Below the pieces are notes generated by a model. That model saw nothing but the letters and a program-made list of their open reading frames with translations. It was not told the origin of the DNA and searched no databases. Below, in pieces: positions 30,348-54,106 of a DNA stretch of 64,000 nt. Both the position numbers and the translations under genes were made by a program. The stretch covers positions 9,391 to 73,390 of the forward strand of contig JBBQGM010000007.1 in assembly GCA_038322995.1 (NCBI GenBank). Reading direction: 5' to 3'. The DNA is from Pyrinomonadales bacterium. Lineage in GTDB: Bacteria; Acidobacteriota; Blastocatellia; Pyrinomonadales; Pyrinomonadaceae. Position 1 is the first letter of the stretch. Each line of letters begins with the position of its first letter.

Positions 30348-30470
30348 TACTAAAAACCAAAGTCCTTGAAAATATACACCTCTAAATCTCCCATTTCACA
30401 CCAAAGTCATCTAAAATAACAACCAAAGTCGGTGGAAATGTTTCGGTAATAGACTAAAGGCGTTGGAAAT
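30348..30470 (+). repeat. transposon end A: terminal IR plus four putative TnsB-binding repeats
   Basis: ACCAAAGTCCTTGAAAAT (30356), ACCAAAGTCATCTAAAAT (30400), ACCAAAGTCGGTGGAAAT (30422), ACTAAAGGCGTTGGAAAT (30453). All are in the same orientation, with spacings of 44/22/31 bp. Confidence 0.75.
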
Positions 30471-32059: not shown

Positions 32060-32062
32060 ACA

Positions 32063-36783: not shown

Positions 36784-38136
36784 GTGATTGCCTCGCCCGA
36801 AAAATCCTGGCCCGTACATCTGAAACCAAAGGCTGGCGAACTCTTCACTTCATGGTTAGCTCGGCTGTCCATAGCACACGGCCTTAAACCTAACAGTTTT
36901 ACTTCCATAATCTGGCCAAGCAATACTAACCTATGGCTAATACGAGACTTTGACAGGGCGAATAATAAAGAAGGGCTTGAGCTGTTAGCGGAGAAAACGT
37001 GTACGACACTTGAGAAAGTGATAGTTGCGACGCTCTCTGATTACCAAGGTCGTCTCTATGAAATATCTCCGCCAAGCGGTGTAACTTATTGGCTACTGCC
37101 ACGCGGCCAAGCTACCTCTCGGAATCACAATCTCAAATATTTCGGTTTACAATATTGCCCACGGTGCCTTTCGGAGGAGGAACCTTACTTCAGGCGGGAA
37201 TGGAGATTGGCATTTGTTACTTTCTGTGCAAAGCATAAATTATTCCTACTTGATCGCTGCACTAGATGCGGATATGCCATAAATTTTTATATGAACGTAA
37301 CAAGGGAATGGGATAGAGTTTCAGACTCCTTAACCGTTTGCTACAATTGTACCTTTGATCTTCGTCATGCTCCCATCAGTACATCTTCAAATTCGATTGC
37401 TACAGATACACTGAATTTCCAAAAACATCTTTTGACTGCCTTAGACCAAGGATGGGTAGAGGTTCCTCAGAATGCATCCGTACATTCGCTTATGTACTTC
37501 GAAGGACTACGTCACTTAGCATACGCACTTTCTGGCCGTCACAGACACATCAAGAATCTTCTAGAATTAGCCTGTAGGCATTATGGTATTAAAGAGGGTT
37601 TCCCTGGCCCTCGGCGAAGAACTACCTTTGAGAGCCTCGATGTTATTACGCGACGCATCATTGTCTTTCTAATGTCAGCACTTCTTAAAGATTGGTCCAG
37701 TGAATTTATTCAGTTTAGCAGAGCTTATAAAATTGAAAGTGACGTTTGGAGCCATCAGCAACAAGATAATATTCCTTATTGGTATTGGAGTATCATTCAT
37801 CTTAATTTAAAAAGAACTAGATACTTGCCCACTGAACAGGAAGTCACCGCTATCTTCGATTTCATAGAGAGAACTGGTCGTCCATCTACCACGAGCGAAC
37901 TACTCAAGTATTTAAATAGTGGTGTCGCGCAAACTAGGAGAAAGAGGCGAGGACTGACTCAAGCAGCTAAGTACGCCAAACATCCAGAAGCAATAAAACA
38001 AGAGGCAATACGCCTATTACTAGAAGGTAAACGGTCTGGAGAAGTGAAACAGATTTTGCCAGTTAGTAGTCACTCGTTATGGAAGTGGATGAAAGATTAT
38101 AACAAATCCGCTGACGGGGGAAGTAAGCCTACTTGA
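36784..38136 (+). CDS. tniQ: TniQ/TnsD-family target-selection protein (copy 1) with C-terminal HTH-like tail
   Basis: 450 aa, GTG start. TniQ N-terminal box WPVHLKPKAGELFTSWLARLSIAHGL. Zinc-finger pairs YCPRCL...CAKHKLFLLDRCTRCG. A C-terminal segment (EAIRLLLEGKRSGEVKQILPVSSHSLWKWMK) resembles a transposase-type HTH. Confidence 0.8.
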   Translation: MIASPEKSWPVHLKPKAGELFTSWLARLSIAHGLKPNSFTSIIWPSNTNLWLIRDFDRANNKEGLELLAEKTCTTLEKVIVATLSDYQGRLYEISPPSGVTYWLLPRGQATSRNHNLKYFGLQYCPRCLSEEEPYFRREWRLAFVTFCAKHKLFLLDRCTRCGYAINFYMNVTREWDRVSDSLTVCYNCTFDLRHAPISTSSNSIATDTLNFQKHLLTALDQGWVEVPQNASVHSLMYFEGLRHLAYALSGRHRHIKNLLELACRHYGIKEGFPGPRRRTTFESLDVITRRIIVFLMSALLKDWSSEFIQFSRAYKIESDVWSHQQQDNIPYWYWSIIHLNLKRTRYLPTEQEVTAIFDFIERTGRPSTTSELLKYLNSGVAQTRRKRRGLTQAAKYAKHPEAIKQEAIRLLLEGKRSGEVKQILPVSSHSLWKWMKDYNKSADGGSKPT

Positions 38137-38212: not shown

Positions 38213-38992
38213 ATGCCTGTCAGGAAAATTCCAAGGAGTTATCGGAACGTAACAGGTCTCACGGCAACCAATAAGTCCAGCGAAATGACTGCATATGAAT
38301 CAGGTCTTGAACACAAGTTCCACAAACTCCTGACCTTCAACTCCAACGTCTTAAAATACGAAGAGCAGCCAGTTAAAATATACTTCATCGGCGAAGATGG
38401 AAAGACGCATCACTATACTCCTGACGTACTCATCAATTACAAAAAAGACTTGGCTCCAGCTAAACATTGGAAACCACTTCTTGCAGAAGTCAAGTGGAGA
38501 ACAGATCTATGTAAGGACTGGCAAGAACTGAAACCTAAATTTCGGGCCGCTAGGAAGCATGTAGCTGAAAGAGATTGGGATTTCACAATAGTAACCGACA
38601 AAGAAATTATAAATCCTTACTTATATAACGCTATCTTCCTCATCACATTTCGCAGGTTTCCAGTCAACGAAGATTATAGGCATTTGCTACTTGAAGCTTT
38701 AGATGAGTTGCGTGAGACAGATCCGGAGACTCTATTGCGTTCCGTGGCCGCAGATCGCGATGAAATATCTAGATTGTTACCAACCTTATGGCAACTCGTT
38801 GATAATCACGCGGTGGGCGTCAACCTAGATTCAAAGTTGACGATGCGTAGCCGAATTTGGTCGCTTCGATTCCAAGACGAGGTCGAAAGAGATGAAGGCA
38901 TTTATCAACTTATCGCCGGGCGTGGTCGTCGAATGCGATGGCAAGCGCTACGCTATCACAAGCATTTTAACTCTGGAATCCGTCCTCGCTAA
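38213..38992 (+). CDS. tnsA: TnsA endonuclease-like transposition protein
   Basis: 259 aa. Restriction-endonuclease-like E/D/K pattern (YESGLEHKF ... YTPDVLINY ... LAEVKW) as in Tn7 TnsA. Confidence 0.82.
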   Translation: MPVRKIPRSYRNVTGLTATNKSSEMTAYESGLEHKFHKLLTFNSNVLKYEEQPVKIYFIGEDGKTHHYTPDVLINYKKDLAPAKHWKPLLAEVKWRTDLCKDWQELKPKFRAARKHVAERDWDFTIVTDKEIINPYLYNAIFLITFRRFPVNEDYRHLLLEALDELRETDPETLLRSVAADRDEISRLLPTLWQLVDNHAVGVNLDSKLTMRSRIWSLRFQDEVERDEGIYQLIAGRGRRMRWQALRYHKHFNSGIRPR

Positions 38993-40774
38993 AGATGAAG
39001 AAACGGGAAACCATCGAGAGTTATATATAAAGGACATTACTCCTGTCTCGGACTTAACACTGAGCGAAGATAACAAGCAGTTAGATCTCTCTCTAATTCC
39101 CAAAGATGACTGGAATGATGCATCAGGCTGGGCCAACAGGCTTCGCCCATTAGTCTCAGCTTCGCGACGCACTACAGAAATGGTGGATGAAGTCGCGAAA
39201 GAAGCCGGTGTTGGAAGGACTACTGTTTACCGCAAACTAAAAATACTTGAAAAGTCCGGTAAAGCCTCATCCCTCATACCGCAAAAGTCCAGCGGCGGCA
39301 AAGGTAAAAGCCGTCTTTCGACTGAAGCTGAATCAATTATCCGTACCACTATCGTTGACCTTCGTTTCACCAAGGGAAAGAAGAAAGCTTCTTTCGACGA
39401 CATTTACGAAGAAATAAAAAACAAATTAAATAGATCCGAGATCGACATCCCTCACATCAATACTGTTCAGAGAAGGATCAACTCTATTCGGAAGGAATAT
39501 GAGCAGCAATCAAGCGATCAAGAAAGTGGAAAAAGAAACGTCGCATACCCCGGACGCTTTCCGGGCGCCGACTTCCCACTCGCTGTGGTGCAAATAGATC
39601 ACACTGAACTCGACATAATGCTGGTAGACGACGTTGATAGAGAACCCATTGGAAGACCTTGGATTACTTTAGCTATTGATGTCTTCAGCCGTACTGTTCC
39701 AGGCTTCTACCTTTCTCTTGATCCCCCTGGTGACATATCGGTGGGGCTTTGCATTGCTCATGCGATTCTGCTCAAAGATAAGTGGCTTGCTAAGCATAAC
39801 ATTAATATTGCTTGGCCAACTTGGGGAGTTATGAGCAAGATTCATGCTGATAATGCGGGTGAATTTCATAGCAACATGATAAAACGCGCGTGCAATGAAT
39901 ACAGCATTGATCTTGAATGGCGGCCAGTCAAAAAGCCTCGCTACGGCGCACTCATCGAGAGCTTACTTGGGACGTTCGCAGAAAAGATACACCAACTCCC
40001 AGGAACAACTTTTTCGAATCCAAAGGAGCGTGGCAAATACGACTCGGAAAAAATGCGGCACTAACTATCTCAGCGCTGGAAGAATGGTTTGCCAGGTACG
40101 TTGCCGGGGTTTATCACCAAGAAATACACAGCGCTCTACTCACCTCCCCAATAAAGCAATATGAAAAGGGTATATTTGGCACCAAGGACATACCAGGACG
40201 TGGGCTTCCCTATCAGATACATGATGAGGATCGCCTACGATTAGATTTAATGCCAGCTGAGAAACGCACCATTCAGGAGTATGGAGTAGTTATAGACTTC
40301 ATACATTATTACAGTGGCGTATTAAACAAACATATTAATGAACAAGATGAAAACTCAACCAAGAAACGCAAATTCATATTCAAGCGAGATCCACGGAATA
40401 TCAGCCGAATCTATTTTTTCGACCCCGATCTCAACGAATATTTCAAGATTCCTTACCGAGATACATCACAGCCACCTATGAGTATATGGGAGTATCGTAA
40501 GGTTCGTAGAAGGCTCGAAGCGCTAGGTAAAGAAGACATAGATGAACAGTTGATCTTTCAGACCTTCAAAGAAATGCGCGCTATTGAGGAACGCGAAGCC
40601 CGTATGACTAAAAGTAAACGGCGTGATGCTCAAAGGCGACGGCAACATCGACAAATCGAAGAGCCCAAAATGGCGGATGAGCGCCATAGGGATTTGCCAG
40701 AAAGAAATGAGTCCGATGAACTCGAAGATGTACCTGTTGTTGAACCATTTGATGAGATGGAATATCTAACGTAA
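38892..40774 (+). CDS. tnsB: TnsB-like DDE (Mu/rve-type) transposase, reading frame broken at an A6 run (40048-40053)
   Basis: ORF 38892-40064 carries an HTH region and DDE residues (VVQIDHTELD, IHADNAGEF) and ends ...KERGKYDSEKMRH-stop. ORF 39917-40774, in the -1 frame, continues ...NAALTISALEEWFARYVAGVYHQEIHSAL. A -1 shift within GGAAAAAAT joins them into one protein of about 627 aa. Confidence 0.8.
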
Positions 40775-40843: not shown

Positions 40844-41785
40844 ATGAGCCAGAAGGATACTCAGGGCATCGCAAGTCCAACACATCTTAATGTAAATGAG
40901 AGAACGTGGCTGGAATTAAGTGATGATGAGCGCATTTTTAAGTTACATGGCGAACGCTGGATTAGATACGATAAGGCTAAAGAGATCATTGACAAGCTAA
41001 ACAAGCTAATCACGTATCCTAAGAAACGAAGAATGCCGAACTTATTAATCGTTGGGGATACCAACAATGGTAAGACGATGATCGTCAATCGGTTTAAGGA
41101 ACAACACCCACCTGACGACAATATAGATGGCGATGCGAAGATCATCCCTGTAATAATTGTACAAGCTCCGCCCACAGCGGATGAGGGTCGTTTCTACAAT
41201 CACATTCTCACCCAACTGAATGCACCATTTAAAGAGAACGACAGGCCCGGAAAGAAGTACATACAGGTAGTAACTATATGTCAACGCGTTGGTCTTCGAG
41301 TTCTCATCATTGACGAGATACACGACATTATTGCGGGCAGCAGATCTAGTCAGCGTGTTTTCCGCAACGCGATCAAACAGCTCGGTAACGATCTCCAAAT
41401 TCCTATCGTCGGTGTTGGCATAGACGCAGCCTATAACGCCATACAGTCGGATGACCAGTTAGCGAATCGTTTCGAACCTGCCATATTACCGAGATGGAAG
41501 ATAAGCGATAACCTGCCTCCTGCAAAAGATCCATATTTGAAACTTTTAACCAGTTTCGAGCGCATGCTTCCTCTTCGCAATCCATCATATCTGGTCCACA
41601 AAACAATGGCTTTGAAATTGATGAGCATGTGTGAAGGACTGATTGGCGAGTTATCAACTGTGCTCACCAGAGCGGCTGAACAAGCTATCAGAAATAAAAG
41701 GGAAAAAATCGACGTGGTGACTTTGAACGAAATAGGCTGGATAGCTCCCTCGGACCGGAGCAGAAGGACGCAAGTAATAGGCTGA
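40844..41785 (+). CDS. tnsC: TnsC/TniB-like AAA+ ATPase
   Basis: 313 aa. Walker A GDTNNGKT, Walker B VLIIDEIHD, TniB-like length. Confidence 0.82.
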   Translation: MSQKDTQGIASPTHLNVNERTWLELSDDERIFKLHGERWIRYDKAKEIIDKLNKLITYPKKRRMPNLLIVGDTNNGKTMIVNRFKEQHPPDDNIDGDAKIIPVIIVQAPPTADEGRFYNHILTQLNAPFKENDRPGKKYIQVVTICQRVGLRVLIIDEIHDIIAGSRSSQRVFRNAIKQLGNDLQIPIVGVGIDAAYNAIQSDDQLANRFEPAILPRWKISDNLPPAKDPYLKLLTSFERMLPLRNPSYLVHKTMALKLMSMCEGLIGELSTVLTRAAEQAIRNKREKIDVVTLNEIGWIAPSDRSRRTQVIG

Positions 41786-41821
41786 ATGAAAAACCGCAGA
41801 GCAACTTCAGATATGTAGTCG

Positions 41822-41866
41822 GTACATTTCAATCCTAAGCACGACGAGCTTTTGTCCCCATGGCTG
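41822..41866 (+). pseudogene. possible relic of a third tniQ 5' end immediately downstream of tnsC
   Basis: Frame translation VHFNPKHDELLSPWL parallels the TniQ N-terminal box of both intact copies (VHLKPKAGELFTSWL; VHLKPKDDELISSWL). An in-frame TAG precedes it, and similarity is lost after about 15 codons. Confidence 0.4.
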
Positions 41867-41953
41867 CCCGCTTGGTTATCGCAAAATATGGAGGTAATAA
41901 TTTTTAAATATAGGCTTCCGCCGAAAAGTTTTGTGCTGTATCCCCAGTATGCT

Positions 41954-42262
41954 CTAGTTTTGGGCAGAAGACTTTCTTTTAACGCCTTCTTTCTTTGCCC
42001 TGGAGGGTAGATTCTCCGGCAAATTCAAATTGTCATCGACGAGAACATCAATCCATACCCCAGCCATACGAGCATACTCCAAGAGTGTCAGCAGTGATGG
42101 CTCGCGCGTGCCCCGCTCGAAAGCAGACACATCTGACTGCGTTAATTCATCAGCCAGTCCAAGATGCCTTAACAATGAATTTTGAGAATCGTTGAAGGTC
42201 CGCCGAATAGTTAATAATTTTTCAGCCAAACGCTGCGGCTTTCGCCTTGCAAACGTGCCCAT
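41954..42262 (-). CDS. XRE-family helix-turn-helix transcriptional regulator
   Basis: HTH: SQNSLLRHLGLADELTQSDVSAFERGTREPSLLTLLEYARMAG. Start placed at the second ATG (42262) because AGGAGG lies 9 nt upstream. The track ORF extends to 42286. Confidence 0.75.
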   Translation of the reverse strand: MGTFARRKPQRLAEKLLTIRRTFNDSQNSLLRHLGLADELTQSDVSAFERGTREPSLLTLLEYARMAGVWIDVLVDDNLNLPENLPSRAKKEGVKRKSSAQN

Positions 42263-42317
42263 CAGGATATACCTCCTGATGGGCACAACATTTGTGTTCC
42301 GAGTTTCCTCTTGCTTT

Positions 42318-42335
42318 TAAGTGCAATTGCACTTA
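42318..42335. promoter_or_regulatory. 18-bp perfect palindrome, candidate operator of the XRE regulator
   Basis: TAAGTGCAATTGCACTTA lies about 55 bp upstream of the XRE start, in the divergent intergenic region. Confidence 0.4.
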
Positions 42336-42522
42336 GTATTTCATGGTACTTGTTTTTCGCCGGCGGGAGGTTATCTCTGTTGTCCCATACGGCGCCCATC
42401 ATCTTCGATGTTGAGCTGCCTTACTCATTTGCTAAGAGCCACCGAAAATTCCCGGCGAAGGATACCAAAAAACTCTAAAGATCGTCACTCACTAAGATAT
42501 CGCGCAAATCAATGAATAGATT

Positions 42523-42876
42523 ATGCGATTGGATGAACACATTGTGCGAGAAGAAATAATACCGCACCCGCGGGGGCGGAAGCTGAAACTATTCTATTAT
42601 GAACAGGTCAATTCACGCTCCTACTTACGGATCACCAAACTTGGTCTCGTTATCGTTTTGGTCTTCACCGTCTTACCGGTTATTGCACTCCTCTCTTTAT
42701 TTCTCTTAAATCAATCAACTCCGATGCCGAATGTGGATGTAACGATCAAGCCGATGCCGACGGCTAACGATTCCATTTACTACTATCCGCCAACCGACAC
42801 CACCGCCCGCTCCGAAAGTACTGAGGCAGCCCAAAGCAGCATAATCCGTCCCGCCAGCACCTCCATCGCCTATTAG
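42523..42876 (+). CDS. hypothetical single-pass membrane protein
   Basis: 117 aa with one TM helix (LGLVIVLVFTVLPVIALLSLFLL). Divergent from the XRE gene. Confidence 0.4.
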   Translation: MRLDEHIVREEIIPHPRGRKLKLFYYEQVNSRSYLRITKLGLVIVLVFTVLPVIALLSLFLLNQSTPMPNVDVTIKPMPTANDSIYYYPPTDTTARSESTEAAQSSIIRPASTSIAY

Positions 42877-43357: not shown

Positions 43358-44341
43358 GTGGAGACATTATCCGCCAAAACAGGAACGCCTCTTGAACGGG
43401 TGAGAGCGACAACACTTGCGGCTTATGAAAACGTACTTTATGAGAAGCATAACCATTTCGGCCCCTCCTCATGGATTATGCCAATTGGCGTTTATCACCG
43501 GACTCACAAACAGTTCGGATTACAGTATTGTCCGCGCTGTTTTACTGAGGACGAAGATCCGTATTACCGCTGCAAATGGCGCTTGGCCTTAATAGTAGTA
43601 TGTGAGAAACATCATGTAGTGCTTCACGACCGCTGCCCCAAGTGTGGAGAACCCGTCAACTTCCATCGCGACGAGTTGGGTAATCATCGCAAGTTTGTTG
43701 CCGTCTCACTAACGCTCTGTTATTCCTGTCATTTTGATCTGCGAGCAGTTGTAAGCAAGCCAGGCTTCTCTGCAACGTTCGAAGAAGCTCAATTTACCTC
43801 CACACTACTACGGACGATAGATGCCGGTTTTATTCAGGTAAGCGAGGGCATAGTAACGCACTCCCATTTGTTTTTTGCAGGGCTTCGCCAATTGATGAAG
43901 ATCCTAGCAATGCGGGATAAGCGAATAGTTAGCATGTGTCAGGCTATTAGCGAAACATATGGAGTTGAGGTATACACGCCTTCGGTTTCGAGAACAATCG
44001 ACGTTCAAGAAATCGGGGTCGAAGGTCGTAGGCAATTGCTGGGGCTTGCTTGTTGTTTGCTTCAGGAGTGGCCTCACCGCTTTATTGAATTCTCTCGAAA
44101 ATTCAAAGTCTGGAGTTCATTGTGGTTAAGACATGTAGATTCTCCCACGAACCGAAGGACAACTGTGGCACCATTTTGGTTCTGGAGTACCGTTCACGAC
44201 CATTTATATCGCGCTCGATACTGTCCTTCTTATGAAGAAACAAAAGCTGCAATAGGATATCTCAAACGCAAAGGAAGGCCAGTGAACAAATCAGTGCTTG
44301 CCCGCTTGCTAGGAGTTACAGTGATACGCAGAGAATTGTAG
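43358..44341 (+). CDS. tniQ: TniQ/TnsD-family protein (copy 2); conserved N-terminal box lies upstream of the first canonical start
   Basis: Zinc-finger pairs YCPRCF...CEKHHVVLHDRCPKCG, collinear with copy 1. The same frame is open back to 43131 and encodes ...HFPEKAQEHSELWPVHLKPKDDELISSWLVRLARAHGLKLHTF, the TniQ box. There is no ATG/GTG/TTG in that stretch, only CTG 43142 and ATT 43154. Confidence 0.75.
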   Translation: METLSAKTGTPLERVRATTLAAYENVLYEKHNHFGPSSWIMPIGVYHRTHKQFGLQYCPRCFTEDEDPYYRCKWRLALIVVCEKHHVVLHDRCPKCGEPVNFHRDELGNHRKFVAVSLTLCYSCHFDLRAVVSKPGFSATFEEAQFTSTLLRTIDAGFIQVSEGIVTHSHLFFAGLRQLMKILAMRDKRIVSMCQAISETYGVEVYTPSVSRTIDVQEIGVEGRRQLLGLACCLLQEWPHRFIEFSRKFKVWSSLWLRHVDSPTNRRTTVAPFWFWSTVHDHLYRARYCPSYEETKAAIGYLKRKGRPVNKSVLARLLGVTVIRREL

Positions 44342-45616: not shown

Positions 45617-46663
45617 GTGCCCATCCAGGTCTATGATTTCTTTTCGGGGTGTGGCGGTACAAGTGCTGGTTTAAGGGCTTCCGGAATGCAGATAGCCCTC
45701 GGCCTTGATATTGACCCTGACGCACAAGGTACATTTCAAGCTAATTTCCCGGAAGCAGCGTTCATCCATGGAAACATTAGAGAAGTCCAAGCCGAGGCCA
45801 TCGCCCCTTATATAAACCGTGAAGCACATGATCGGCTGCTCTTCTCCTGCTGCGCTCCATGCCAATCATTCTCAATACTAAACAGAAATCGGAATGGCAA
45901 AGATGCCCGGGCTTTGTTGCTCTATGAATTTGCACGTTTTGTTGAGCCCTACCTACCTGAGTTTATTTTTTTAGAAAATGTTCCGGGCGCACAAAATGTC
46001 TCAGGAGAACCGGGACCGTTTACTGACTTCGAGCAGCTACTGAGACTCTTAAATTATAATGTAGCTTATGGAATTATAGAATCGCAGCGTTATGGGGTTC
46101 CTCAACGACGTAAAAGGTTCGTTTTGATAGCTAGCCTGTTAGGCCCCATAGACCTACCTGAAGTTACACATGGGCCGGGAACAACAAATCCAACTTATCC
46201 TACTGTCTGGGAAAGTATCGGTCATTTACCACCTATCGCCGCAGGTGAAACTCATCCGATAATACCGAATCATAGAGCTGCCGGCTTGTCCGAGATTAAT
46301 CTCAGAAGAATAATTGCTACGCCAGAAGGGGGCGGGCGATTAAATTGGCCAGAAGAACTCGTTTTGGATTGTCATGGCGGAGAATACGACGGCCACACAG
46401 ATGTATATGGTCGAATGCGAAAGCATGAGCCAGCCAGTGGTCTGACAACGAGATGTACCAGTCTATCGAACGGGCGTTTCGGACACCCGGAACAGCATAG
46501 GGCTATCAGCGCTCGTGAGGGAGCTTGCTTGCAGACTTTCTCGCAAGATTTTATATTTTCCGGCGGTATTAACTCGATGGCACGTCAGATAGGTAATGCA
46601 GTTCCTGTATTGGTAGCACAGATATTTGGTCAACACTTCATTGCTCACTCTGACCTCTACTAA
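45617..46663 (+). CDS. dcm: DNA (cytosine-5)-methyltransferase
   Basis: All C5-MTase motifs are present in order: I FFSGCGG, IV APCQSFS, VI ENVPG, VIII QRRKRFVLIA, X GNAVPV. GTG start. Confidence 0.92.
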   Translation: MPIQVYDFFSGCGGTSAGLRASGMQIALGLDIDPDAQGTFQANFPEAAFIHGNIREVQAEAIAPYINREAHDRLLFSCCAPCQSFSILNRNRNGKDARALLLYEFARFVEPYLPEFIFLENVPGAQNVSGEPGPFTDFEQLLRLLNYNVAYGIIESQRYGVPQRRKRFVLIASLLGPIDLPEVTHGPGTTNPTYPTVWESIGHLPPIAAGETHPIIPNHRAAGLSEINLRRIIATPEGGGRLNWPEELVLDCHGGEYDGHTDVYGRMRKHEPASGLTTRCTSLSNGRFGHPEQHRAISAREGACLQTFSQDFIFSGGINSMARQIGNAVPVLVAQIFGQHFIAHSDLY

Positions 46664-46680: not shown

Positions 46681-49656
46681 ATGGCCAAATTTAGGGCTCG
46701 TGCTCGAACCGTTGACATGCTCGGTCGTCAACAGATCGCCGGGATACCTACGGCCATTAGCGAATTATTCAAGAACGCACATGATGCTTATGCGGAAAAT
46801 GTAGAAGTAGACTTCTTCCGCTCTGAACACCTTTTTGTCTTGCGAGATAACGGCATAGGTATGACAGAGGAAGAGTTTGTAAGCCGCTGGCTCGCTATTG
46901 GGACCGAGAGCAAATTGGGTGCAGGGATAGGATTATCGCCACCACCGAAACCTTCGGACATTGCTGAACGTCCTATCATGGGAGAAAAGGGTATTGGGCG
47001 GCTTGCAATAGCAGCCATTGGCCCGCAGGTTTTAATTCTCACACGAGCCACCCGCGATGACAAACAGCATGACATTGTCATGTCTTTCATTCACTGGGGG
47101 ATATTTGAGAGTCCCGGGATAAATCTGGATGAAATAGATATACCCGTTGAAGTTTATAAGGAGGGCGAGTTGCCGAGTCGCGATGACGTTCTAGCGATGG
47201 TCGATTTATTCCGCGAGAATATTGACAAGCTAGGCGCATCAATCCAACCTTTATTGGCAGAAAGAATTAATACGGAACTGAAGAGATTCAATGTTGACCC
47301 CCGCACATTGGATGGCTATTTGAGCAAAATAGGTAAGTCGACCCTCACAGGAAAGGGAAAGGGTACCCACTTCCTGATTTTCCCCACGGATGAATCTCTA
47401 ATACCGGATATAGAAGGCGATAGCGACCCTACTGCCCCAGCCCCACCTATAATCAAAACATTGATCGGATTCTCCAATACAATGACGAGCGAGCAACCGC
47501 CTGTTATTGATACGAGTTTTCGTGATCATAATACCCCTGAAGCCTATGTCGATCTAATCACACCTGGAAGTTTTTTCACACCAGAAGAGTTTAAAACGGC
47601 TGACCATCATTTTTCCGGTGAGTTTGATGAGTACGGCCAGTTCTCTGGAAAAGTAACCATTTATAGAGAAGAGCCTGTGCAACATACAATTGCTTGGCCA
47701 GGAGCGAAAGGAGAGAAAACCGAGTGCGGTCGGTTCAAACTCAACTTGGCATATGTGCAGGGCGAACGAGTTGAAAGCCTTTTACCTCAGCAGGATTACG
47801 TCAAGATTATTAGGAAGCTTAATAAGATCGGCGGATTGTATATCTACAAAAATGGAATTCGTGTTCTTCCCTATGGTAGCAGTGATTATGATTTTCTTGA
47901 TTTGGAACAAAGAAGAAGTAAGAAAGCATCCTACTATTATTTCTCATATAGACGAATGTTTGGTTATGTGGAAATAAGCGGAAGTACCAACCCCCAATTA
48001 ATTGAGAAGGCAGGACGCGAGGGCTTTATAGAGAACAAAGCATATAGACAATTCAAGTCGATTTTAAAACACTTCTTCTTACAGATGGCCATCGATTTCT
48101 TCCGTGAAAGCGGAGAACATTCGGATGCATATTATGAAGGCCGAAACGAGCTAACGAGGGCAGAAGCAATTCGCCGAGCACGCGAAAGAAAAGTCAAAGA
48201 AGAGAGAAGAAGTTTTGCCAATACTCTGAATGAATTTTTCTTGCAAGTCGAAGAAGAAGTGCCACAGAAGCAGGCGTCGCAACTGCTTAACACGGTCAGT
48301 AATCAGTTACAAACGATTTCAAATACTAGTGACCAGATACAGGCATCCTCTGCACTTTTGGAGCTTGATGCCAGCTCTCGCAAAAGGGTTGAAGTTTTGC
48401 GAGAGCGTTACAAAATAACAAAGCCGCGCGGATTAGGTCTTACCCCAAAACTTCGCCGAGATTGGGAACTTTGGGCAAAAGAGTCTGGACGGCTCGAAGT
48501 CGACATTTTTCAGCCCACTCAACAAAGAGTAGACTTACTTATAACTGAAGCGGCACATCAACAACGCACGTCCGTCAACCCACAGAAGCGTATCGAGCGC
48601 GCGCTCAAAGAAAGAATTGCCGAAGCTCGTTCAACGGTCAACCATGAAATCAGGGAAACAAAACAAATTATTGAGGATGTTCGAACCCATACACTACAGC
48701 TTATAAATAATAGTGCGGCTCATTTGGAAAGTGTAATAAATGAAGCCCAGAGTGATCTTAATCAGTTGCAAGGCTCTGCTAAGGAAGAGGCATCAATCTT
48801 AGGAGAATATTACAGGTTAGAATCCGAGTTAAGCGAAGCTGCCGAGAGAGAACGACAAGCACTTGAGAATATACGCAAGCAGTTACAAGAAAACATCGGC
48901 GCATCGGTTAGCACCGACGAAGTAATTGAAGCCTTGGAAGAAGAAAATCTAGCCCTTCATGAGAGTGCGAACGCTGATATAGAACTGATACAACTTGGGA
49001 TGGCGGTAGCGGTCATAAACCATGAATTCGAAAGCACGGTTCGTTCGATTCGCAGTAATTTACTGCGACTCAAAGGATGGGCTGATACTAATAAGGAGTT
49101 AAGAGATCTTTACAGACATGTGAGGGCCGACTTCGATCATTTAGATGCCTATTTGGAATTGTTTACTCCTCTTGAGAAGCGTCTATTCCGCAAGAAAGCT
49201 ACAATACGCGGTTCTGATATTGCCAAGTACTTGCGCGATCTATTTGATGAGCGGTTACGCAGAGAGAAGGTCGAAATCCAATCCACCAATAGCTTCTCTC
49301 GGATGTCGTTCTCCGGATATCCTTCAGCCTTCTATCCAGCTTTCGTCAACCTGGTAGATAACGCGATTTTTTGGCTAAAAGATCGGCGCCTCCCGAGAAT
49401 TATAAAGCTAGATCTGATAGGCGGTAGTACGTTTGTAATTTCGGATAATGGCCCGGGCATCCCTGTAAGAGACCGAGAGATGATTTTCGAGCGCGGTTTT
49501 TCGCGCAAGCCGGGGGGCAGAGGGATGGGACTGAAAATTTCACGCGATGTGCTATCCCGAGAAGACTGGGAACTGACCCTAGCCGAATCAAAGCCCGGTG
49601 AAGGAGCCACCTTCCTGATGAAACCCAAGCCCCTGGAGAGAAAGGGGAAAACTTAA
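46681..49656 (+). CDS. dual-ATPase protein: N-terminal GHKL (HATPase_c_3 / MORC-like) module, long coiled coil, C-terminal histidine-kinase transmitter (DHp + HATPase_c)
   Basis: 991 aa. N-terminal Bergerat fold boxes ELFKNAHDA, LRDNGIGM, GEKGIGRLA. Residues ~480-760 are heptad-rich. H-box-like AVAVINHEFESTVRSI, then N-box LVDNAIFW, G1 SDNGPGI, G2 GGRGMGLKISR. Starts 18 nt after dcm. Confidence 0.8.
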   Translation: MAKFRARARTVDMLGRQQIAGIPTAISELFKNAHDAYAENVEVDFFRSEHLFVLRDNGIGMTEEEFVSRWLAIGTESKLGAGIGLSPPPKPSDIAERPIMGEKGIGRLAIAAIGPQVLILTRATRDDKQHDIVMSFIHWGIFESPGINLDEIDIPVEVYKEGELPSRDDVLAMVDLFRENIDKLGASIQPLLAERINTELKRFNVDPRTLDGYLSKIGKSTLTGKGKGTHFLIFPTDESLIPDIEGDSDPTAPAPPIIKTLIGFSNTMTSEQPPVIDTSFRDHNTPEAYVDLITPGSFFTPEEFKTADHHFSGEFDEYGQFSGKVTIYREEPVQHTIAWPGAKGEKTECGRFKLNLAYVQGERVESLLPQQDYVKIIRKLNKIGGLYIYKNGIRVLPYGSSDYDFLDLEQRRSKKASYYYFSYRRMFGYVEISGSTNPQLIEKAGREGFIENKAYRQFKSILKHFFLQMAIDFFRESGEHSDAYYEGRNELTRAEAIRRARERKVKEERRSFANTLNEFFLQVEEEVPQKQASQLLNTVSNQLQTISNTSDQIQASSALLELDASSRKRVEVLRERYKITKPRGLGLTPKLRRDWELWAKESGRLEVDIFQPTQQRVDLLITEAAHQQRTSVNPQKRIERALKERIAEARSTVNHEIRETKQIIEDVRTHTLQLINNSAAHLESVINEAQSDLNQLQGSAKEEASILGEYYRLESELSEAAERERQALENIRKQLQENIGASVSTDEVIEALEEENLALHESANADIELIQLGMAVAVINHEFESTVRSIRSNLLRLKGWADTNKELRDLYRHVRADFDHLDAYLELFTPLEKRLFRKKATIRGSDIAKYLRDLFDERLRREKVEIQSTNSFSRMSFSGYPSAFYPAFVNLVDNAIFWLKDRRLPRIIKLDLIGGSTFVISDNGPGIPVRDREMIFERGFSRKPGGRGMGLKISRDVLSREDWELTLAESKPGEGATFLMKPKPLERKGKT

Positions 49657-49659
49657 CTT

Positions 49660-51453
49660 ATGACCTCACCCTCAGGAACCGACTTCAGACAGCATTCGGA
49701 GAATGTTGCTCGCAGATTCCTTCAAACAGTTGTAGTCGTTGATGATCGCGCTTACTTTGATTGGCCGGAATCAGTCTCCGTGCCTACGACTCCTGTAAAA
49801 TCTCCCGCACGCCCACAGTTTGTCGGAGAAACGACGACAATTATCGAGCCTGAAGAAGAGTCCGACATTACGGATGAAGCAGCTACGGATGAGACTTTAG
49901 ACGAAATAAAGGAACCGATAGTCGAGCAAGCGAGGACTGACGAGGAGACTTCTGAAGATCGAGCCCACGTGTTGGATGCTAAGTACCTGATCGAAAGTTT
50001 CGCCGAACGAGGTATGGCATGTGCGGTTCTTCGACCTAAGAAGTTTGAGGTTGATCAATTAGACAAAAAGGTCTACCCGGTCGCGGAGCGTTCTGACATT
50101 GTGATGTTGGATTGGGTACTACATCAGGATACCGAAGGCAAGAAAGTTACTGAACTCATTGCCGAAATGACGAAAAGGGCATTGGAGCAGCATCGCTTGC
50201 GACTAATAGTCGTATATACGGGCGAACTAAAAATCTTCGACATTGTTGATACCATTTTGGCGGTCTTGAAGAAGGCTGGTGTAAATGATGTTTTGAAGGA
50301 AGATGATTTCACATTGGTGATTGGGTCGGTAAGGATCGTTGTATATGTCAAGAACAACGTTGGCGGGGTGGGTCTAAGCGATGAACTAAGAGGAAGGTTA
50401 GTGCCGGCTGATCAATTACCTGATAGATTGATCAGCGAATTTACGAAAATGACGGCAGGACTTGTATCCAATGTTGCGCTTGATTCGCTTGCTGCGCTAC
50501 GTTCGAACACGCACCGTATACTATCAAAATTCAATGCCGATATAGATGCGCCATTCCTGGCACATCGAGCAATGTTGCCTCATCCGGAAGATGCCAGCGA
50601 TCTACTTGTTCATCTCGTTAGCGGTGAATTAACTGCTGTGCTTGAGGGAAATAAAGTCGGGGTAGCCGCGGATGAGAGTGAGGGGACAGATGTAATCAAG
50701 GCTTGGATAGAGATGAACGAAGCAAGCGGATATGAGTTCGCAAAGCGATTTGCGGTTAAGGAGTCTATTGATGTTTTAGTTCAATTGAATACGTTGCTTC
50801 GCAAGGGTGTCGCTAACGATACATTACTAGGGAAATTCAAGACTTTCAAAAACAACCCTCATCAACGTGAACTGACAGCGCAATTGTGTTCCTCTTCGAA
50901 ATCCGCTTCCGATCTGGACCATGAGTTTGCAGCATTAACAATACTGAAGTCCGACTACCGTTCGGAGTCGAACCTACCTGCCCTTGTTCCCGGAACCTTG
51001 CTAAAGGAGATATCGTCATCGGAAGAGATAGAATCTTCTTTCAAATACTGGGTATGCATACAACCTGTATGCGACTGCGTCAGAATCAAGTCCACAAGAT
51101 CATTTCCCCTTCTCCAATTAGATTTGGTTAATGACAATGGTAAGTTTGATCTTATATTGCCGGATAAAGGAAAGAAATTCGTGAAGGCTCGCGTTATATA
51201 TCGTCCGTATAAATCTCGTTTGGAAGATTTTGATCCGTCCACTGATGGCTCAGAAATGGTACGCGCAGAAGCTCAAAGCGGCGAAATTTATTTTACGGCT
51301 AAGGATGGAACTCGCTATCAATGGCTTGCAGACTTGAAGTTTGAGCCGGCGCAGAGAATAGTCAATAAATATGCATCTGAACTTGCGCGCGTCGGCCTTA
51401 ATGAATCCGAATGGCTGCGTCGGTCGGCCAAAGGCAAAGGGGAGGAAGAATAG
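49660..51453 (+). CDS. atypical receiver (REC-like) domain protein with an acidic insert and an unassigned ~350-aa C-terminal region
   Basis: 597 aa. VVVVDDR (acidic pair), IVMLDWVL (candidate phospho-acceptor Asp) and LIVVYTG (conserved Thr position) are arranged as in CheY-like receivers. The ~70-aa Glu/Asp/Thr-rich insert is unusual. No motif is recognised in the C-terminal part. Starts 4 nt after the kinase stop. Confidence 0.65.
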   Translation: MTSPSGTDFRQHSENVARRFLQTVVVVDDRAYFDWPESVSVPTTPVKSPARPQFVGETTTIIEPEEESDITDEAATDETLDEIKEPIVEQARTDEETSEDRAHVLDAKYLIESFAERGMACAVLRPKKFEVDQLDKKVYPVAERSDIVMLDWVLHQDTEGKKVTELIAEMTKRALEQHRLRLIVVYTGELKIFDIVDTILAVLKKAGVNDVLKEDDFTLVIGSVRIVVYVKNNVGGVGLSDELRGRLVPADQLPDRLISEFTKMTAGLVSNVALDSLAALRSNTHRILSKFNADIDAPFLAHRAMLPHPEDASDLLVHLVSGELTAVLEGNKVGVAADESEGTDVIKAWIEMNEASGYEFAKRFAVKESIDVLVQLNTLLRKGVANDTLLGKFKTFKNNPHQRELTAQLCSSSKSASDLDHEFAALTILKSDYRSESNLPALVPGTLLKEISSSEEIESSFKYWVCIQPVCDCVRIKSTRSFPLLQLDLVNDNGKFDLILPDKGKKFVKARVIYRPYKSRLEDFDPSTDGSEMVRAEAQSGEIYFTAKDGTRYQWLADLKFEPAQRIVNKYASELARVGLNESEWLRRSAKGKGEEE

Positions 51454-51456
51454 CCC

Positions 51457-51885
51457 GTGCCAGATATTATGACGCCTGCTCAACGTAGTAGAGCAATGTC
51501 AATGGTGCGGAGTAAGGATACCGGAATAGAAAAGTTTGTGCGTTCGGAGTTGCATCGCAAAGGATTTCGATTCAGGAAGAATGTTGCATCACTTCCAGGC
51601 CGCCCGGATATTGTGCTGCCTAAGTATCGCACTATTGTATTCGTACATGGCTGCTTCTGGCATGGTCATGAAAACTGCAAAGCCTCAAAGCTACCGGAGA
51701 CTAGGCGCGATTTTTGGGAACGAAAGATTTTCGGCAATATAGAGCGTGATGCAAAGCATGTTAAAGCATTGAAGGACGATGGATGGAAAGTTCTGACTAT
51801 TTGGGAGTGTACCCTAAAGTACAAAAATATTAGTGATAAAGTAACCGCCGTCGAAGCGCTTACGGAGAACATAAAAGTCAACTGA
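51457..51885 (+). CDS. vsr: very short patch repair (T:G mismatch) endonuclease
   Basis: 142 aa. TPAQRSRAMSMVRSKDTGIEKFVR, GRPDIVLPKYRTIVFVHGCFWHGHENC, FWERKI..N..RD are hallmark Vsr blocks. The start may be ATG 51469. Confidence 0.92.
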   Translation: MPDIMTPAQRSRAMSMVRSKDTGIEKFVRSELHRKGFRFRKNVASLPGRPDIVLPKYRTIVFVHGCFWHGHENCKASKLPETRRDFWERKIFGNIERDAKHVKALKDDGWKVLTIWECTLKYKNISDKVTAVEALTENIKVN

Positions 51886-51930: not shown

Positions 51931-52629
51931 ATGGACCCACGCAAGCTATTTGTTGATGAAAGGTTAACGGGAATTTGTGTTTATTGTGGTGCCGCACCGA
52001 ATACGCGCGACCATGTCCCATCCCGGGTACTTTTGGATGAGCCTTTTCCGGCAAACTTGCCGGTGGTTGATGCATGTCGAAGTTGCAATGATAACTTTTC
52101 GCAAGACGAAGAGTATGTGGCCTGCCTTATTGAATGTGTTATTTGTGGGACAACAGAGCCGAATAGCGTTAAGAGGGATAAAATCAAGAGGATATTGAAT
52201 GACCGCTCTTTGATAGCAGCGAGAATACGAGAGAGTTGCAACGAAGATGCCACCGGCAATCTGTCGTGGCAGGCTGATATAGTACGAGTTCGGAATGTTA
52301 TTCTGAAGCTAGCTCGCGGACATCTAGCCTTCGATTTGAATGTTTGTCACTTCGAAGCTCCAAATGTTCTTGAATTCGTGCCTCTTGTGACTATGTCGCA
52401 GGAGGAGATCAATTCATTTGAACAGTCACAGGAAGAACAAAGCGCGCTTTTTCCTGAAATCGGCAGTCGTGCTTTCATCTCGATGTGGAAGTCTACAGGT
52501 GCCGAATGGCATGATTGGCGCGAAGTGCAGACCGGAAGGTATCGTTATCGTGTCGAGCAATCTTTAGATGGTGACAAAGTGCAATTCGTAATAAGTGAAT
52601 ATCTTGCTTGTAAACTGATCTGGATCTAG
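51931..52629 (+). CDS. HNH-type (beta-beta-alpha-Me) nuclease-domain protein
   Basis: 232 aa. CVYCG-N7-DHVPSRV-N17-CRSCNDNF has the CxxC...DH...CxxCN arrangement of zinc-stabilised HNH nucleases. The C-terminal two thirds are unassigned. Confidence 0.6.
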   Translation: MDPRKLFVDERLTGICVYCGAAPNTRDHVPSRVLLDEPFPANLPVVDACRSCNDNFSQDEEYVACLIECVICGTTEPNSVKRDKIKRILNDRSLIAARIRESCNEDATGNLSWQADIVRVRNVILKLARGHLAFDLNVCHFEAPNVLEFVPLVTMSQEEINSFEQSQEEQSALFPEIGSRAFISMWKSTGAEWHDWREVQTGRYRYRVEQSLDGDKVQFVISEYLACKLIWI

Positions 52630-52828: not shown

Positions 52829-52895
52829 ATTTCCAAGGTCTATTGTGTTATTTCAAACGACTTTGGTGTATTTCAGAGGACTTTGGTTTTTAGTA
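52829..52895 (-). repeat. transposon end B: terminal IR plus three abutting putative TnsB-binding repeats
   Basis: Read on the minus strand: ACCAAAGTCCTCTGAAAT (52887-52870), ACCAAAGTCGTTTGAAAT (52867-52850), ACAATAGACCTTGGAAAT (52846-52829). The 20-21 bp spacing is tighter than at end A. Confidence 0.75.
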
Positions 52896-54106
52896 CCTGC
52901 CGCGCGCGTGAGTTGCGCGACCGATTCGACGTGGTGCGTCTGGGGAAACATATCAAATGCGGCGAGAGAGTCAAGGTGGTAACCGCCCTCGGCTAGGACG
53001 CGCAGGTCGCGCGCGAGCGTGGCCGGATCGCAGGAGACGTAGGCGATGCGTTGCGGGCGCAAGGCGAGGATGCCGCGAAGCACTTCAGGCTCTGCGCCAG
53101 CGCGCGGCGGATCGAGGAGGACGAGCGCGCCGGGCGCGTGTTGGGCGGCGTGGCGTGTGAGCCACGGGCCGACGAGCGAGGTGTGGACGCGGGCGTTGGC
53201 GAGTTGCGCGTCCACGAGGTTGCGGCGCGCGTAGGCGCAGGCGCGCGGGTTCGCTTCGATGGCGGTGACGCGCGTGAAGCGGCGCGCGAGCGGCAAGGTG
53301 AAGAGGCCGACGCCGCAGTAGAGATCAATGGCGGATGTGCCGTGTGTGTCACCGAGCGCGTGGCTGACGAGCGGCGCGAGCAGCGCATGATTGATCTGGA
53401 AAAAACAGTCGGCGTCGAAGTGGTAACGCTCGCCCGCGATGACACGCAGGCGCTCATGCTTATCTTCATCATCAACTGGTGGCGCAAGCGAGACGCCGTC
53501 GTCACCGGCGACGGCCTGATATTCTTGCGCGGCGTGCGGCAGCGTGGCTGCGGCCATGCGCGTGCGCAGCCGCGTGAGCGTGGTTTGCACTTCGGGCAGC
53601 ACGACCGGGCACGCGGCCACGTCGCAGACGCGATGCGAAGCCAGTTCGTAATAGCCGAAGCGTTGCCCTGCCGCGTCATGTTGCCAGCGGGCGCGCGAAC
53701 GATAGTGCCAAGCGTCGGGCGCGGGCGTGATGGGGATGTCGGCGGGTGGCGCGAGCCGCGCGATGCGGCGCAGACAGTCGCGGATGCTCTCGACCTTCGC
53801 GGCGAGTTGCGCTTCGTAGGTCAACTGTTGAAAGTCGCAACCGCCGCAGCGGCCGAAGTAAGGACACGGCGGCTCGATGCGCGCGGGGCCGGGCGTGAGA
53901 ATTTCCACCGGCGCGGCAAATGCAACCCCGCCCCGCATGCGCTCGACGCGGACGCGCAGTTGATCGCCGGGCGTGGCCAGCGTGACGAACAGCGTGCGCC
54001 CATGCGCGTGCGCCAGCCCCGCACCGCCCGGCACGAGGCGTTCGATCTCGACCTCCAACAGATCGCCGACGCGCAGAGGTGGGTGCGTATGCGCTTGCTT
54101 GCTCAT
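52853..54106 (-). CDS. rlmD: TRAM/4Fe-4S RNA (uracil-C5)-methyltransferase, RumA/RlmD family; last 13 codons and stop supplied by the transposon end
   Basis: 417 aa. N-terminal TRAM-like beta barrel, cluster cysteines CPYFGRCGGCDFQQL, SAM fold DLYCGVGLF, LLDPPRAGAE, YVSCDPATLARD. Residues TKNQSPLKYTKVV-stop (52853-52894) are encoded inside the element. Confidence 0.8.
   Translation of the reverse strand: MSKQAHTHPPLRVGDLLEVEIERLVPGGAGLAHAHGRTLFVTLATPGDQLRVRVERMRGGVAFAAPVEILTPGPARIEPPCPYFGRCGGCDFQQLTYEAQLAAKVESIRDCLRRIARLAPPADIPITPAPDAWHYRSRARWQHDAAGQRFGYYELASHRVCDVAACPVVLPEVQTTLTRLRTRMAAATLPHAAQEYQAVAGDDGVSLAPPVDDEDKHERLRVIAGERYHFDADCFFQINHALLAPLVSHALGDTHGTSAIDLYCGVGLFTLPLARRFTRVTAIEANPRACAYARRNLVDAQLANARVHTSLVGPWLTRHAAQHAPGALVLLDPPRAGAEPEVLRGILALRPQRIAYVSCDPATLARDLRVLAEGGYHLDSLAAFDMFPQTHHVESVAQLTRAAGTKNQSPLKYTKVV
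52896..52900. repeat. target-site duplication copy 2 (CCTGC)
   Basis: See 30343-30347. Confidence 0.85.

Follow-up and report, generated by a model that had tools for sequence, protein, structure and literature searches.

Positions 46681-51453 of a 64,000-nucleotide stretch of DNA from a Pyrinomonadales bacterium (GenBank assembly GCA_038322995.1, contig JBBQGM010000007.1, positions 9,391 to 73,390 of the forward strand; this whole stretch is referred to here as the window) encode a histidine kinase that begins with a predicted MORC-type ATPase module and a partner protein in which a receiver domain is followed by an orphan output region. This kinase/receiver pair is the core, i.e., the middle two genes, of a tight four-gene operon that also encodes a C5-cytosine DNA methyltransferase (Dcm) and a Vsr very-short-patch-repair endonuclease, and the cassette travels as cargo of a Tn7-like element. 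We propose, with a confidence that stays somewhat below even, that the cassette works like a restriction system, for defence or addiction, with one protein that senses, a second that executes and phosphotransfer as the link between them. The pair belongs to the two-component-like HEF_HK/Response_reg_2 family (Bellieny-Rabelo, Pretorius and Moleleki, 2021; PMC8011034), represented in Pfam by PF19191 and PF19192; the locus is a new, clean, transposon-borne member of this described family, and the architecture itself is not new. An initial annotation of this DNA had placed both open reading frames correctly. It had also called the architecture unusual for housekeeping two-component systems; this architecture was already published and in Pfam, and the flanking Dcm and Vsr genes, just outside the coordinates that it covered, went unnoticed.

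The operon and its two-ATPase kinase

The kinase gene (46681-49656, + strand, 991 aa) and the receiver-protein gene (49660-51453, + strand, 597 aa) lie between those of Dcm and Vsr, and the four co-directional genes, in the order Dcm, MORC-kinase, receiver protein and Vsr, are separated by successive gaps of 17, 3 and 3 nt. The features of the operon are the following:

45617-46663, + strand: C5-cytosine DNA methyltransferase of the Dcm type, gene 1 of the cassette (PF00145, 3.4e-50; TIGR00675, 3.6e-40)
46681-47070, + strand: kinase residues 1-130, N-terminal Bergerat (GHKL) ATP-binding domain of the HATPase_c_3 / paraMORC type (PF13589, 1.1e-13)
47071-48120, + strand: kinase residues 131-480, predicted transducer/middle domain completing the MORC-type ATPase module (AlphaFold2 model, Foldseek)
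48121-48990, + strand: kinase residues 481-770, helical linker of partly heptad-like character, interrupted near residue 580 by a conserved KPRGxGL break
48991-49185, + strand: kinase residues 771-835, dimerisation and histidine phosphotransfer (DHp)/H-box domain, HEF_HK (PF19191, 2e-25), with the codon of the candidate phospho-accepting His781 at 49021-49023
49327-49629, + strand: kinase residues 883-983, catalytic ATP-binding (CA) domain (PF02518, 1.5e-18)
49717-50358, + strand: receiver-protein residues 20-233, receiver domain, Response_reg_2 (PF19192, 2.5e-33), with the codon of the candidate phospho-acceptor Asp151 at 50110-50112
49750-49965, + strand: receiver-protein residues 31-102, disordered acidic and Pro/Ser/Thr-rich insert in the beta1-alpha1 loop
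50377-51453, + strand: receiver-protein residues 240-597, orphan output region (AlphaFold2 model, pLDDT mostly >90)
51457-51885, + strand: Vsr very-short-patch-repair endonuclease (PF03852, 3.8e-32; TIGR00632, 4.2e-42)

Conservation was read from two sets of homologues. The first contains 49 receiver proteins and 36 kinases from a protein database, and its kinase alignment covers only sequences of at least 48% identity. The second, independent set contains 69 sequences, i.e., the proteins of the window and those of 68 complete reference-genome cassettes, in which the receiver proteins go down to ~27% identity; unless stated otherwise, the residue counts given below refer to this set. As in a type II restriction-modification (R-M) system, the cassette holds a cognate methyltransferase with intact catalytic motifs (PF00145, PC and ENV), and PC and ENV are kept in 67-68 of the 69 cassette Dcms. 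Vsr is the usual companion of C5-methyltransferases. A scan of the operon for promoters and terminators returned nothing above shuffled expectation.

The N-terminal head of the kinase carries intact motifs I-IV of the Bergerat fold of MORC and paraMORC ATPases (E28, N32, D56-x-G-x-G and G101-E-K-G-I-G). Pfam places HATPase_c_3 (PF13589) on residues 24-126 with 1e-13 and 51.9 bits against a cut-off of 25, and the stretches ELFKNAHDA, DNGIGM and GEKGIGRLA occur once each, at positions 28, 56 and 101. Residues E28, N32, D56, G58, G60, G101, K103, G104 and G106 of the ATP site are invariant, and the head is the slowest-evolving part of the cassette (median pairwise identity 69%). An AlphaFold2 model of residues 1-520 reached a predicted local distance difference test (pLDDT) score of 86.2 and a predicted template modelling (pTM) score of 0.85. 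In Foldseek this model aligned with entire ATPase modules along 490-550 columns (probability 1.0, E from 2e-11 to 7e-09), namely those of DNA-bound MORC2 (9cdh, 1.9e-11), SMCHD1 (6mw7), MORC3 (6o1e), MORC4 (7k7t) and Hsp90 (N+M). Because these matches extend over whole MORC/Hsp90 modules, the conserved region 130-475 is most readily understood as the transducer domain of a MORC-type clamp ATPase; many residues of the domain (131-480) are invariant, K443 and R446 among them. The model thus shows the N-terminal half of the kinase as a complete MORC-type GHKL-plus-transducer ATPase with intact catalytic residues, in line with the complete GHKL set of the MutL/MORC/HATPase_c_3 kind that had been read from the motifs in the initial annotation. 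Modules of this type dimerise on ATP and clamp DNA. The possibility of a nuclease hidden in residues 130-475 was considered and rejected, the region being the transducer domain of a MORC/Hsp90-type module; neither the model nor Foldseek gave a nuclease fold within it.

The segment that follows the ATPase module (residues 476-770) is rich in E, R, Q, L and A and poor in Pro and Gly, and AlphaFold2 predicts a long helix at residues 481-519. It had been described as heptad-rich, which holds in so far as it is helix-prone and has a modest heptad signal (z=3.1 over shuffles). Since the conserved KPRGxGL break near residue 580 interrupts it, the linker is not one uninterrupted coiled coil. Its matches to the coiled coils of kinesin stalks are weak (E 0.006), and with a median identity of 30% it is conserved less than any other part of the kinase.

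Judged by sequence, the C-terminal half is a genuine kinase core that falls inside the kinase families. HEF_HK (PF19191) scores 89.5 bits on residues 771-835 (cut-off 24.1) and HATPase_c (PF02518) 67.6 bits on residues 883-983 (cut-off 26.4), and the family profile aligns with solved histidine kinases across both DHp and CA domains (3a0r, E 2.4e-15). The motifs NHEFES (780), DNAIFW (893), DNGPGI (922) and GRGMGL (946) occur once each. All elements of a classical HisKA core are present, namely the H-box His with its acidic residue and the N, G1 and G2 boxes (H781-E782, N890/N894, 922 and 946). In the H-box, H781 and E782 are found in 69/69 sequences and F783 in 68/69; in the CA boxes, N890 is kept in 68/69, N894 in 69/69 and G924, G946, G948 and G950 in 68/68, while the G1 Asp (D922) is D in 56 sequences and N in 12. 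At H+4 (residue 785) the window has Ser, and within the family Gly is found in 30 sequences, Ala in 20, Ser in 13 and Asn in 2; the T/N phosphatase motif is not found here, which agrees with a remark on PF19191 (bioRxiv 10.64898/2026.02.27.708494). The Ser, Gly or Ala at H+4 suggests a kinase that would lack phosphatase activity. No PAS or GAF domain was matched in the kinase by Pfam. Maximal 19-residue hydropathy reaches only 1.33 in the kinase and 1.44 in the receiver protein, and there is therefore no transmembrane helix in either protein.

Several statements of the initial annotation concern this half of the kinase. It had recognised the classical core and noted that the protein has neither a transmembrane helix nor a PAS/GAF sensor, and the profile scores, the match to 3a0r, the hydropathy maximum and the Pfam result are all as it anticipated. 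It had also asked for an alignment of homologues and named an unconserved His or Asp, or a C-terminal half outside the kinase families, as grounds for giving up its reading. In the alignment His781 and Asp151 of the receiver protein are kept in 69/69 sequences each and the ATP-site motifs are invariant or nearly so, and neither of these grounds applies.

The receiver protein and its output region

The partner protein appears, from the conservation of its pocket, to be a genuine receiver. Response_reg_2 (PF19192) matches with 116.2 bits (cut-off 27), and the residues typical of CheY-like receivers, i.e., an acidic pair behind beta1, a phospho-acceptor Asp behind beta3, a Thr/Ser behind beta4 and a Lys behind beta5, are all in place: D28, D29, D151 and K231 are kept in 69/69 sequences and position 187 is T in 65 and S in 4, which is the Asp-Asp / Asp / Thr layout already seen in the initial annotation. 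The AlphaFold2 model of the protein (pLDDT 85, pTM 0.79) is confident apart from the insert; in its receiver domain strands alternate with helices, and additional strands lie close to beta5. Foldseek returned weak receiver matches with this model (3jte, 8phx and phage receivers; E 0.04-0.3, probability 0.66-0.95). The ~70-residue acidic interruption of the domain lies at residues 31-102; in the window it has 72 residues, of which 21 are D/E and 5 K/R, a net charge of -16, and residues 53-98 have pLDDT < 50 and are predicted to be disordered. An insert is present in 49/49 homologues of the first set, with a length of 35-73 residues and a net charge of -5 or lower in 35/49, and its sequence is not conserved.

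The receiver domain is followed by ~360 residues that match nothing in Pfam, NCBIfam, PADLOC or the PDB sequences, and a Foldseek search of PDB and BFVD with the full chain gave no match at E <=1e-3; the ~350 residues in which the initial annotation recognised nothing have thus kept their orphan status. Three parts can be distinguished in the model. A helical segment that is conserved (~250-330) and has the motif GLVSNVAL..LAA.R.NTHR.L..F...LDAPFL.HRA comes first; it is followed by a second helical segment, which is variable (331-435), and by a beta-rich domain (436-597) with a conserved C-x-Q-P-x-C-D loop. Counted over the 69-sequence set, with fewer sequences in gapped columns, R281 is conserved in 68/69, D296 in 68/68, H302 in 64/68 (Q in 4), C466, C471 and D472 in 67/67, P469 in 67/68 and R587 in 66/67. 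Among the 49 homologues of the first set, R281, D296, H302, C466, P469, C471 and R587 are invariant and D472 is kept in 47/49. When 1.84 billion representatives were searched with a profile of the output region, 1,794 clusters (50% identity) were matched; in the best 150 the domain is always preceded by an N-terminus of receiver size, and the proteins are 540-600 residues long. The output domain is a large orphan family tied to the receiver architecture.

Candidate activities for this region were examined one by one. A PD-(D/E)xK site composed of D472 and D/E558-x-K560 was rejected, as position 558 is E in 36, D in 6 and Q in 5 homologues, position 560 is K in 34 and R in 14, and the pair lies 86 residues from D472. 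HEPN (R-x4-6-H), PLD, HNH, deaminase (HxE...PCxxC) and papain-like readings were dropped by eye because spacing or secondary-structure context did not fit. Neither the kinase nor the receiver protein yielded a known nuclease fold or motif, and the orphan C-terminal domain stays a candidate. It is possible, though doubtful, that these ~360 residues constitute a new effector fold, perhaps a new nuclease superfamily with a candidate Cys/Asp/His site, that is licensed through phosphotransfer by the MORC-type clamp. If so, this would be the first R-M-type system to link the sensing of self and non-self to cleavage through a phosphorelay and not through direct protein contact or translocation.

Spread, proposed mechanism and rival readings

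The neighbourhoods of related genes were compared in 80 reference-genome loci, which were retrieved with a peptide pattern taken from the N-terminus of the receiver and then sorted by similarity, a procedure that would miss rare variants with other partners. Genes in these loci were taken as the longest open reading frame, and apparent overlaps between them are therefore upper bounds. The loci span Acidobacteriota, Chloroflexota, Pseudomonadota, Bacteroidota, Actinomycetota, Cyanobacteriota, Planctomycetota, Verrucomicrobiota, Methanosarcina and others; metagenome-assembled genomes of Acidobacteriota contain the closest relatives of the cassette. The kinase gene lies directly 5' of the receiver gene in 80/80 loci and the kinase carries the N-terminal GHKL region in 78/80. 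A Dcm gene is located directly 5' of the kinase gene and on the same strand in 72/80 loci and within 3 kb in 77/80, and Vsr is found within 3 kb, upstream or downstream, in 50/80. No separate nuclease recurs and no other gene family is present in more than 14/80 loci, the recurrent extras being type I R-M genes that adjoin the cassette in 11-14/80. All cassette parts co-diverge with Dcm (Spearman rho 0.5-0.8), the receiver protein being the fastest-evolving of them (20-38% identity). The constancy of the kinase-receiver (80/80) and Dcm (77/80) linkage, the scarcity of other recurrent genes, the co-divergence and the short gaps between genes together indicate that the cassette is the unit of selection. 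A search for a specificity module by divergence rates and by correlation with the Dcm variable region was uninformative, as everything co-diverges.

Some individual relatives deserve mention. Methanogenic and halophilic archaea have complete Dcm-kinase-receiver-Vsr cassettes as well as kinases ~48-50% identical to that of the window (locus L005 from Methanosarcina; proteins P0169, P0231 and P0239), which implies recent inter-domain transfer of the whole unit. A database protein of 1,365 aa (P0208) joins DNA_methylase, HATPase_c_3, HEF_HK and HATPase_c in a single Dcm-kinase fusion. This would be Rosetta-stone support for a physical Dcm-kinase complex, but the entry could equally stem from the loss of a stop codon or from an artefact of assembly or gene calling. 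A match on the Pseudomonas syringae plasmid pPsy0479a (L083, positions 41745-42750 of that record) had been taken up as a possible variant with another output domain and was rejected, since it is a decayed, IS5-disrupted remnant in which a kinase stub of 82 aa and a receiver protein truncated to 268 aa stand beside an IS5 transposase.

In the mechanism that we propose, the MORC-like clamp would engage DNA that lacks the cognate 5-methylcytosine (5mC), possibly read through the tightly coupled Dcm, and its signal would pass along the helical linker to the DHp/CA core. The core would then autophosphorylate His781 and pass the phosphate to Asp151 of the receiver protein, a reaction in which the residues are observed and the chemistry is presumed. 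Phosphorylation of the receiver may release the orphan C-terminal domain as the effector, with R281, D296, H302, C466, C471 and D472 as candidate site residues; because no separate nuclease gene is conserved, this effector probably acts on DNA. Methylation by the Dcm family protects the host and the Vsr family repairs the T:G mismatches that arise from 5mC deamination, and both enzymes would presumably play these roles here. As the usual phosphatase motif is missing, self-damage may be limited by the lifetime of the phospho-Asp, which would serve as a timer. The view of the initial annotation that the pair fits a conflict system gains support from its context, i.e., the Dcm/Vsr cassette, the carriage by a transposon and the patchy spread over phyla that include archaea.

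Several observations weigh against this proposal. No nuclease or effector chemistry could be assigned to the receiver protein by Pfam, PDB-sequence, Foldseek or profile-profile comparison; no PD-(D/E)xK, HNH, GIY-YIG or PLD motif is invariant among its homologues, and the sole (D/E)xK candidate, at 558-560, is not invariant either. The variable region of Dcm is as conserved as the catalytic core, and being no more diverged than the core it gives no sign of swapping of the target recognition domain that determines specificity; indeed, no component of the cassette shows the rapid turnover of specificity typical of many R-M families. The family is also rare on plasmids, where the receiver protein occurs in 2 of 72,556 records, and phages gave partial matches only (a phage gene annotated as ParaMORC3 weakly matches just the head of the kinase). 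Moreover, PADLOC has no model that matches the kinase or the receiver protein, and no experimental study of the HEF_HK/Response_reg_2 family was found in the literature. Finally, the signal that is sensed and the sign of the switch, i.e., whether phosphorylation turns the effector on or off, are pure inference.

It is rather unlikely that the pair is a regulatory two-component system in which the MORC-kinase senses an intracellular cue, e.g., nucleotide pools or DNA methylation state, and the novel C-terminal domain of the phosphorylated receiver binds DNA and controls the expression of the linked methyltransferase or of neighbouring R-M genes. Response regulators are for the most part transcription factors, a nuclease motif could not be detected, and in a domain that binds DNA the Cys pair and the His/Asp residues could make up a structural metal site. 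A regulatory role is also what the authors who described the family put forward, speculating that the pair regulates R-M systems, and its genes came to light through their in-planta induction in Pectobacterium (PMC8011034). However, no helix-turn-helix or other DNA-binding family was found in any of the 49 receiver-protein homologues, and the only near-constant linked gene is a single Dcm, which leaves no restriction enzyme to regulate. In addition, a two-ATPase apparatus of 1,600 residues far exceeds other R-M controllers, the GHKL head is shared with proven restriction enzymes and not with regulators, and the family is mobile and patchily distributed.

The same structural evidence that underlies the proposed mechanism would also accommodate an inverted logic, to which we assign a slightly lower probability than to regulation. 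In healthy cells the kinase would then keep the receiver phosphorylated and the effector off, and the arrest of the kinase by cassette loss, methylation loss, ATP collapse in infection or clamp engagement would leave a dephosphorylated effector that kills the cell or degrades DNA, as in an addiction or abortive module. Without T or N at H+4, the phosphorylation state would track kinase activity and the intrinsic decay of the receiver, and R-M systems commonly behave as addiction modules (PMC8011034). Against this, Detocs (Rousset et al., 2023) is the only two-component system validated in defence and its effector is activated by phosphorylation, and the sequence gives no indication of the sign of the switch.

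We regard as quite improbable that the kinase is a repair accessory, in which a MutL/MORC-like ATPase joins Vsr and Dcm in very-short-patch repair of deaminated 5mC and the phosphorelay tunes repair. Vsr lies nearby in 50/80 loci, MutL and Vsr interact functionally (E. coli MutL stimulates Vsr) and paraMORCs have a MutL-like nature (PMC2292703). But 30/80 loci have no Vsr within 3 kb while Dcm is nearly universal, and Vsr accompanies the C5-methyltransferases of many unrelated R-M systems, so that Dcm alone explains its presence; transposon carriage and patchy distribution are also ill-suited to a repair function. That both domains are structural relics without phosphotransfer, as the Asn in place of the CA G1 Asp in 12/68 homologues and the large insert beside the acidic pocket of the receiver might suggest, is hardly credible, because the (nearly) invariant H781, E782, D151, D28/29, K231 and N/G1/G2 boxes across sequences that are 26-30% identical would be unexpected without catalytic selection, and this argues against both a pseudo-kinase and a pseudo-receiver.

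If restriction gated by a phosphorelay proves true, it would represent a new control logic for R-M, would provide the MORC-type ATPases of bacteria with a defined signalling output, accessible to phosphorylation assays, and would reveal a new effector fold. The family concerned is large, with ~1,800 clusters of the output domain at 50% identity, occurs in many bacterial phyla and in archaea, is mobile and is tightly tied to cytosine methylation. The interest of the locus resides in the function of this family and in its orphan output domain and not in the architecture, of which it offers a clean, complete and transposon-borne example that lends itself to cloning.

The element that carries the operon is a low-GC island of ~22.5 kb (window 30348-52895; ~45% GC against ~63% in the host) inserted between comEC (27410-30295, - strand) and the 3' end of rlmD (52853-54106, - strand). 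Its ends consist of inverted arrays of ~20-nt ACCAAAGTC-type terminal repeats at 30348-30439 and 52846-52895, and its transposition genes include:

36784-38136: TniQ
38213-38992: TnsA
40844-41785: TniB/TnsC
43358-44341: second TniQ, N-terminally shorter

A TnsB-like transposase appears to be split over two overlapping open reading frames, 38892-40064 with an HTH-type N-terminus and 39917-40774 with Mu-transpos_C, and no match to a DDE core was reported for either piece; the split could reflect a frameshift, a programmed shift or a decaying transposase. Other cargo is present. A second kinase/receiver pair on the - strand comprises a soluble 851-aa GAF-GAF-HATPase_c kinase (33890-36445), whose ATP-binding end matches the PADLOC candidate-system model PDC-M43B (3e-11), and a stand-alone receiver-like protein of 149 aa (33430-33879) with a Pfam Response_reg match of only 2e-4. 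Two adjacent open reading frames of 378 and 443 aa by the left transposon end (30923-33394) match neither Pfam nor PADLOC. Just 3' of Vsr, a 232-aa open reading frame (51931-52629) shows an HNH-like CxxC...DHxP...CxxCN pattern, with Pfam HNH_5 at only E 0.008. It was considered as the nuclease of the system and rejected as a core part on this score and on its occurrence in 0/80 related loci; it represents a local addition and does not belong to the system.

Comparison with known systems

The closest known systems are the members of the HEF_HK/Response_reg_2 family itself. In the study that described them, HEF_HK was linked with Response_reg_2 in 91.6% of cases over 644 regions, HATPase_c_3 + HEF_HK + HATPase_c (174/222) predominated among the kinase architectures, a C5-methylase was located upstream and Vsr commonly downstream, and the receiver protein had no other known domain (PMC8011034). 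The pair in the window shares this kinase architecture, termed group 1, as well as an adjacent Response_reg_2 gene, the lack of a transmembrane helix and the linkage to Dcm and Vsr. Nothing essential differs from the published members, although this copy is Tn7-like cargo and its insert is unusually long and acidic. What the present analysis adds to that description is the full two-domain MORC-type head, an orphan output family locked to the receiver and the lack of a conserved separate nuclease. The kinase also resembles the R.EcoUTORF4938P subfamily, listed in REBASE as a putative Type II restriction enzyme, in its N-terminal GHKL and C-terminal histidine-kinase-like GHKL domains, for which conserved motifs N, D, F and G were described (Orlowski and Bujnicki, 2008; PMC2441816). 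Judging from that description the two probably belong to the same family; the report does not mention a receiver partner.

A more distant relationship connects the cassette with the BbrUII/HgiDII restriction enzymes, which are the best NCBIfam match of the kinase head (NF050001, 3e-17, residues 9-128 only). With 62.3 bits against a whole-protein cut-off of 550, the kinase is not a member of that family. A true member from a Halobaculum plasmid (L082, 3929-5962), which reaches 801 bits and is encoded directly 3' of a Dcm gene, was used to seed a family profile. In hhalign the heads of this profile and of the kinase are homologous (probability 97.9%, E 4.7e-13, 32% identity) and the remainder is unaligned; the Dcm of the window and the partner Dcm of the BbrUII/HgiDII enzyme are 38% identical and collinear over their full length. 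The two systems thus share the Dcm-then-GHKL gene order, a homologous head and a homologous Dcm. In BbrUII/HgiDII, however, the head is followed by a C-terminal PD-(D/E)xK-like region, in the place of which the window cassette has a kinase core and a separate receiver protein. Given the homologous heads and the 38% identical Dcms, the cassette looks like a relative of HgiDII-type R-M systems in which the fused nuclease has been replaced. The C-terminal consensus of BbrUII/HgiDII (HPWLLDPSWER...GRxDIKY...GKHIIVELKR) resembles the PD-(D/E)xK (D...ExK) nuclease signature; in 2008 the region was labelled as 'unassigned to any fold'. That the receiver protein's C-terminal domain corresponds to this nuclease region was rejected, hhalign giving a probability of 1% with the single sequence and 0.3% with the profile.

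The best structural matches to kinase residues 1-500 are the eukaryotic MORC2, MORC3, MORC4 and SMCHD1, which share the GHKL-plus-transducer arrangement at a sequence identity of only 12-14%; these proteins carry CW or coiled-coil chromatin-reader parts and no kinase core. ParaMORC GHKL+S5 ATPases have been described in R-M operons with Dcm and Vsr, in an account that does not describe the kinase or receiver (Iyer et al., 2008; PMC2292703). A related protein, VcSduA (paraMORC3, Shedu type I-D), is a validated anti-phage GHKL-nuclease in which the ATPase glutamate is needed for defence (PMC12137116). As proposed here for the kinase, VcSduA has an N-terminal GHKL ATPase and a clamp-like middle domain proposed to control an effector. 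In VcSduA, however, the DUF4263 nuclease is part of the same polypeptide, whereas the window cassette has no DUF4263 and control would pass by His-Asp phosphotransfer.

Such phosphotransfer has been established as an immune trigger in Detocs, which consists of a soluble kinase and a receiver-effector and no longer defends once either its His or its Asp is mutated (Rousset et al., 2023; bioRxiv 10.1101/2023.01.24.525353). The cassette is not a Detocs system. PADLOC gives no such match, the cassette has no stand-alone receiver gene and no PNP domain, and the TPR sensor, the buffer receiver DtcB and the PNP ATP-nucleosidase effector are found only in Detocs, which for its part lacks a methyltransferase. 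Nevertheless, with a GHKL head that gates a nuclease in VcSduA and a His-Asp relay that triggers defence in Detocs, both parts of the mechanism proposed for the cassette have precedents among known systems.

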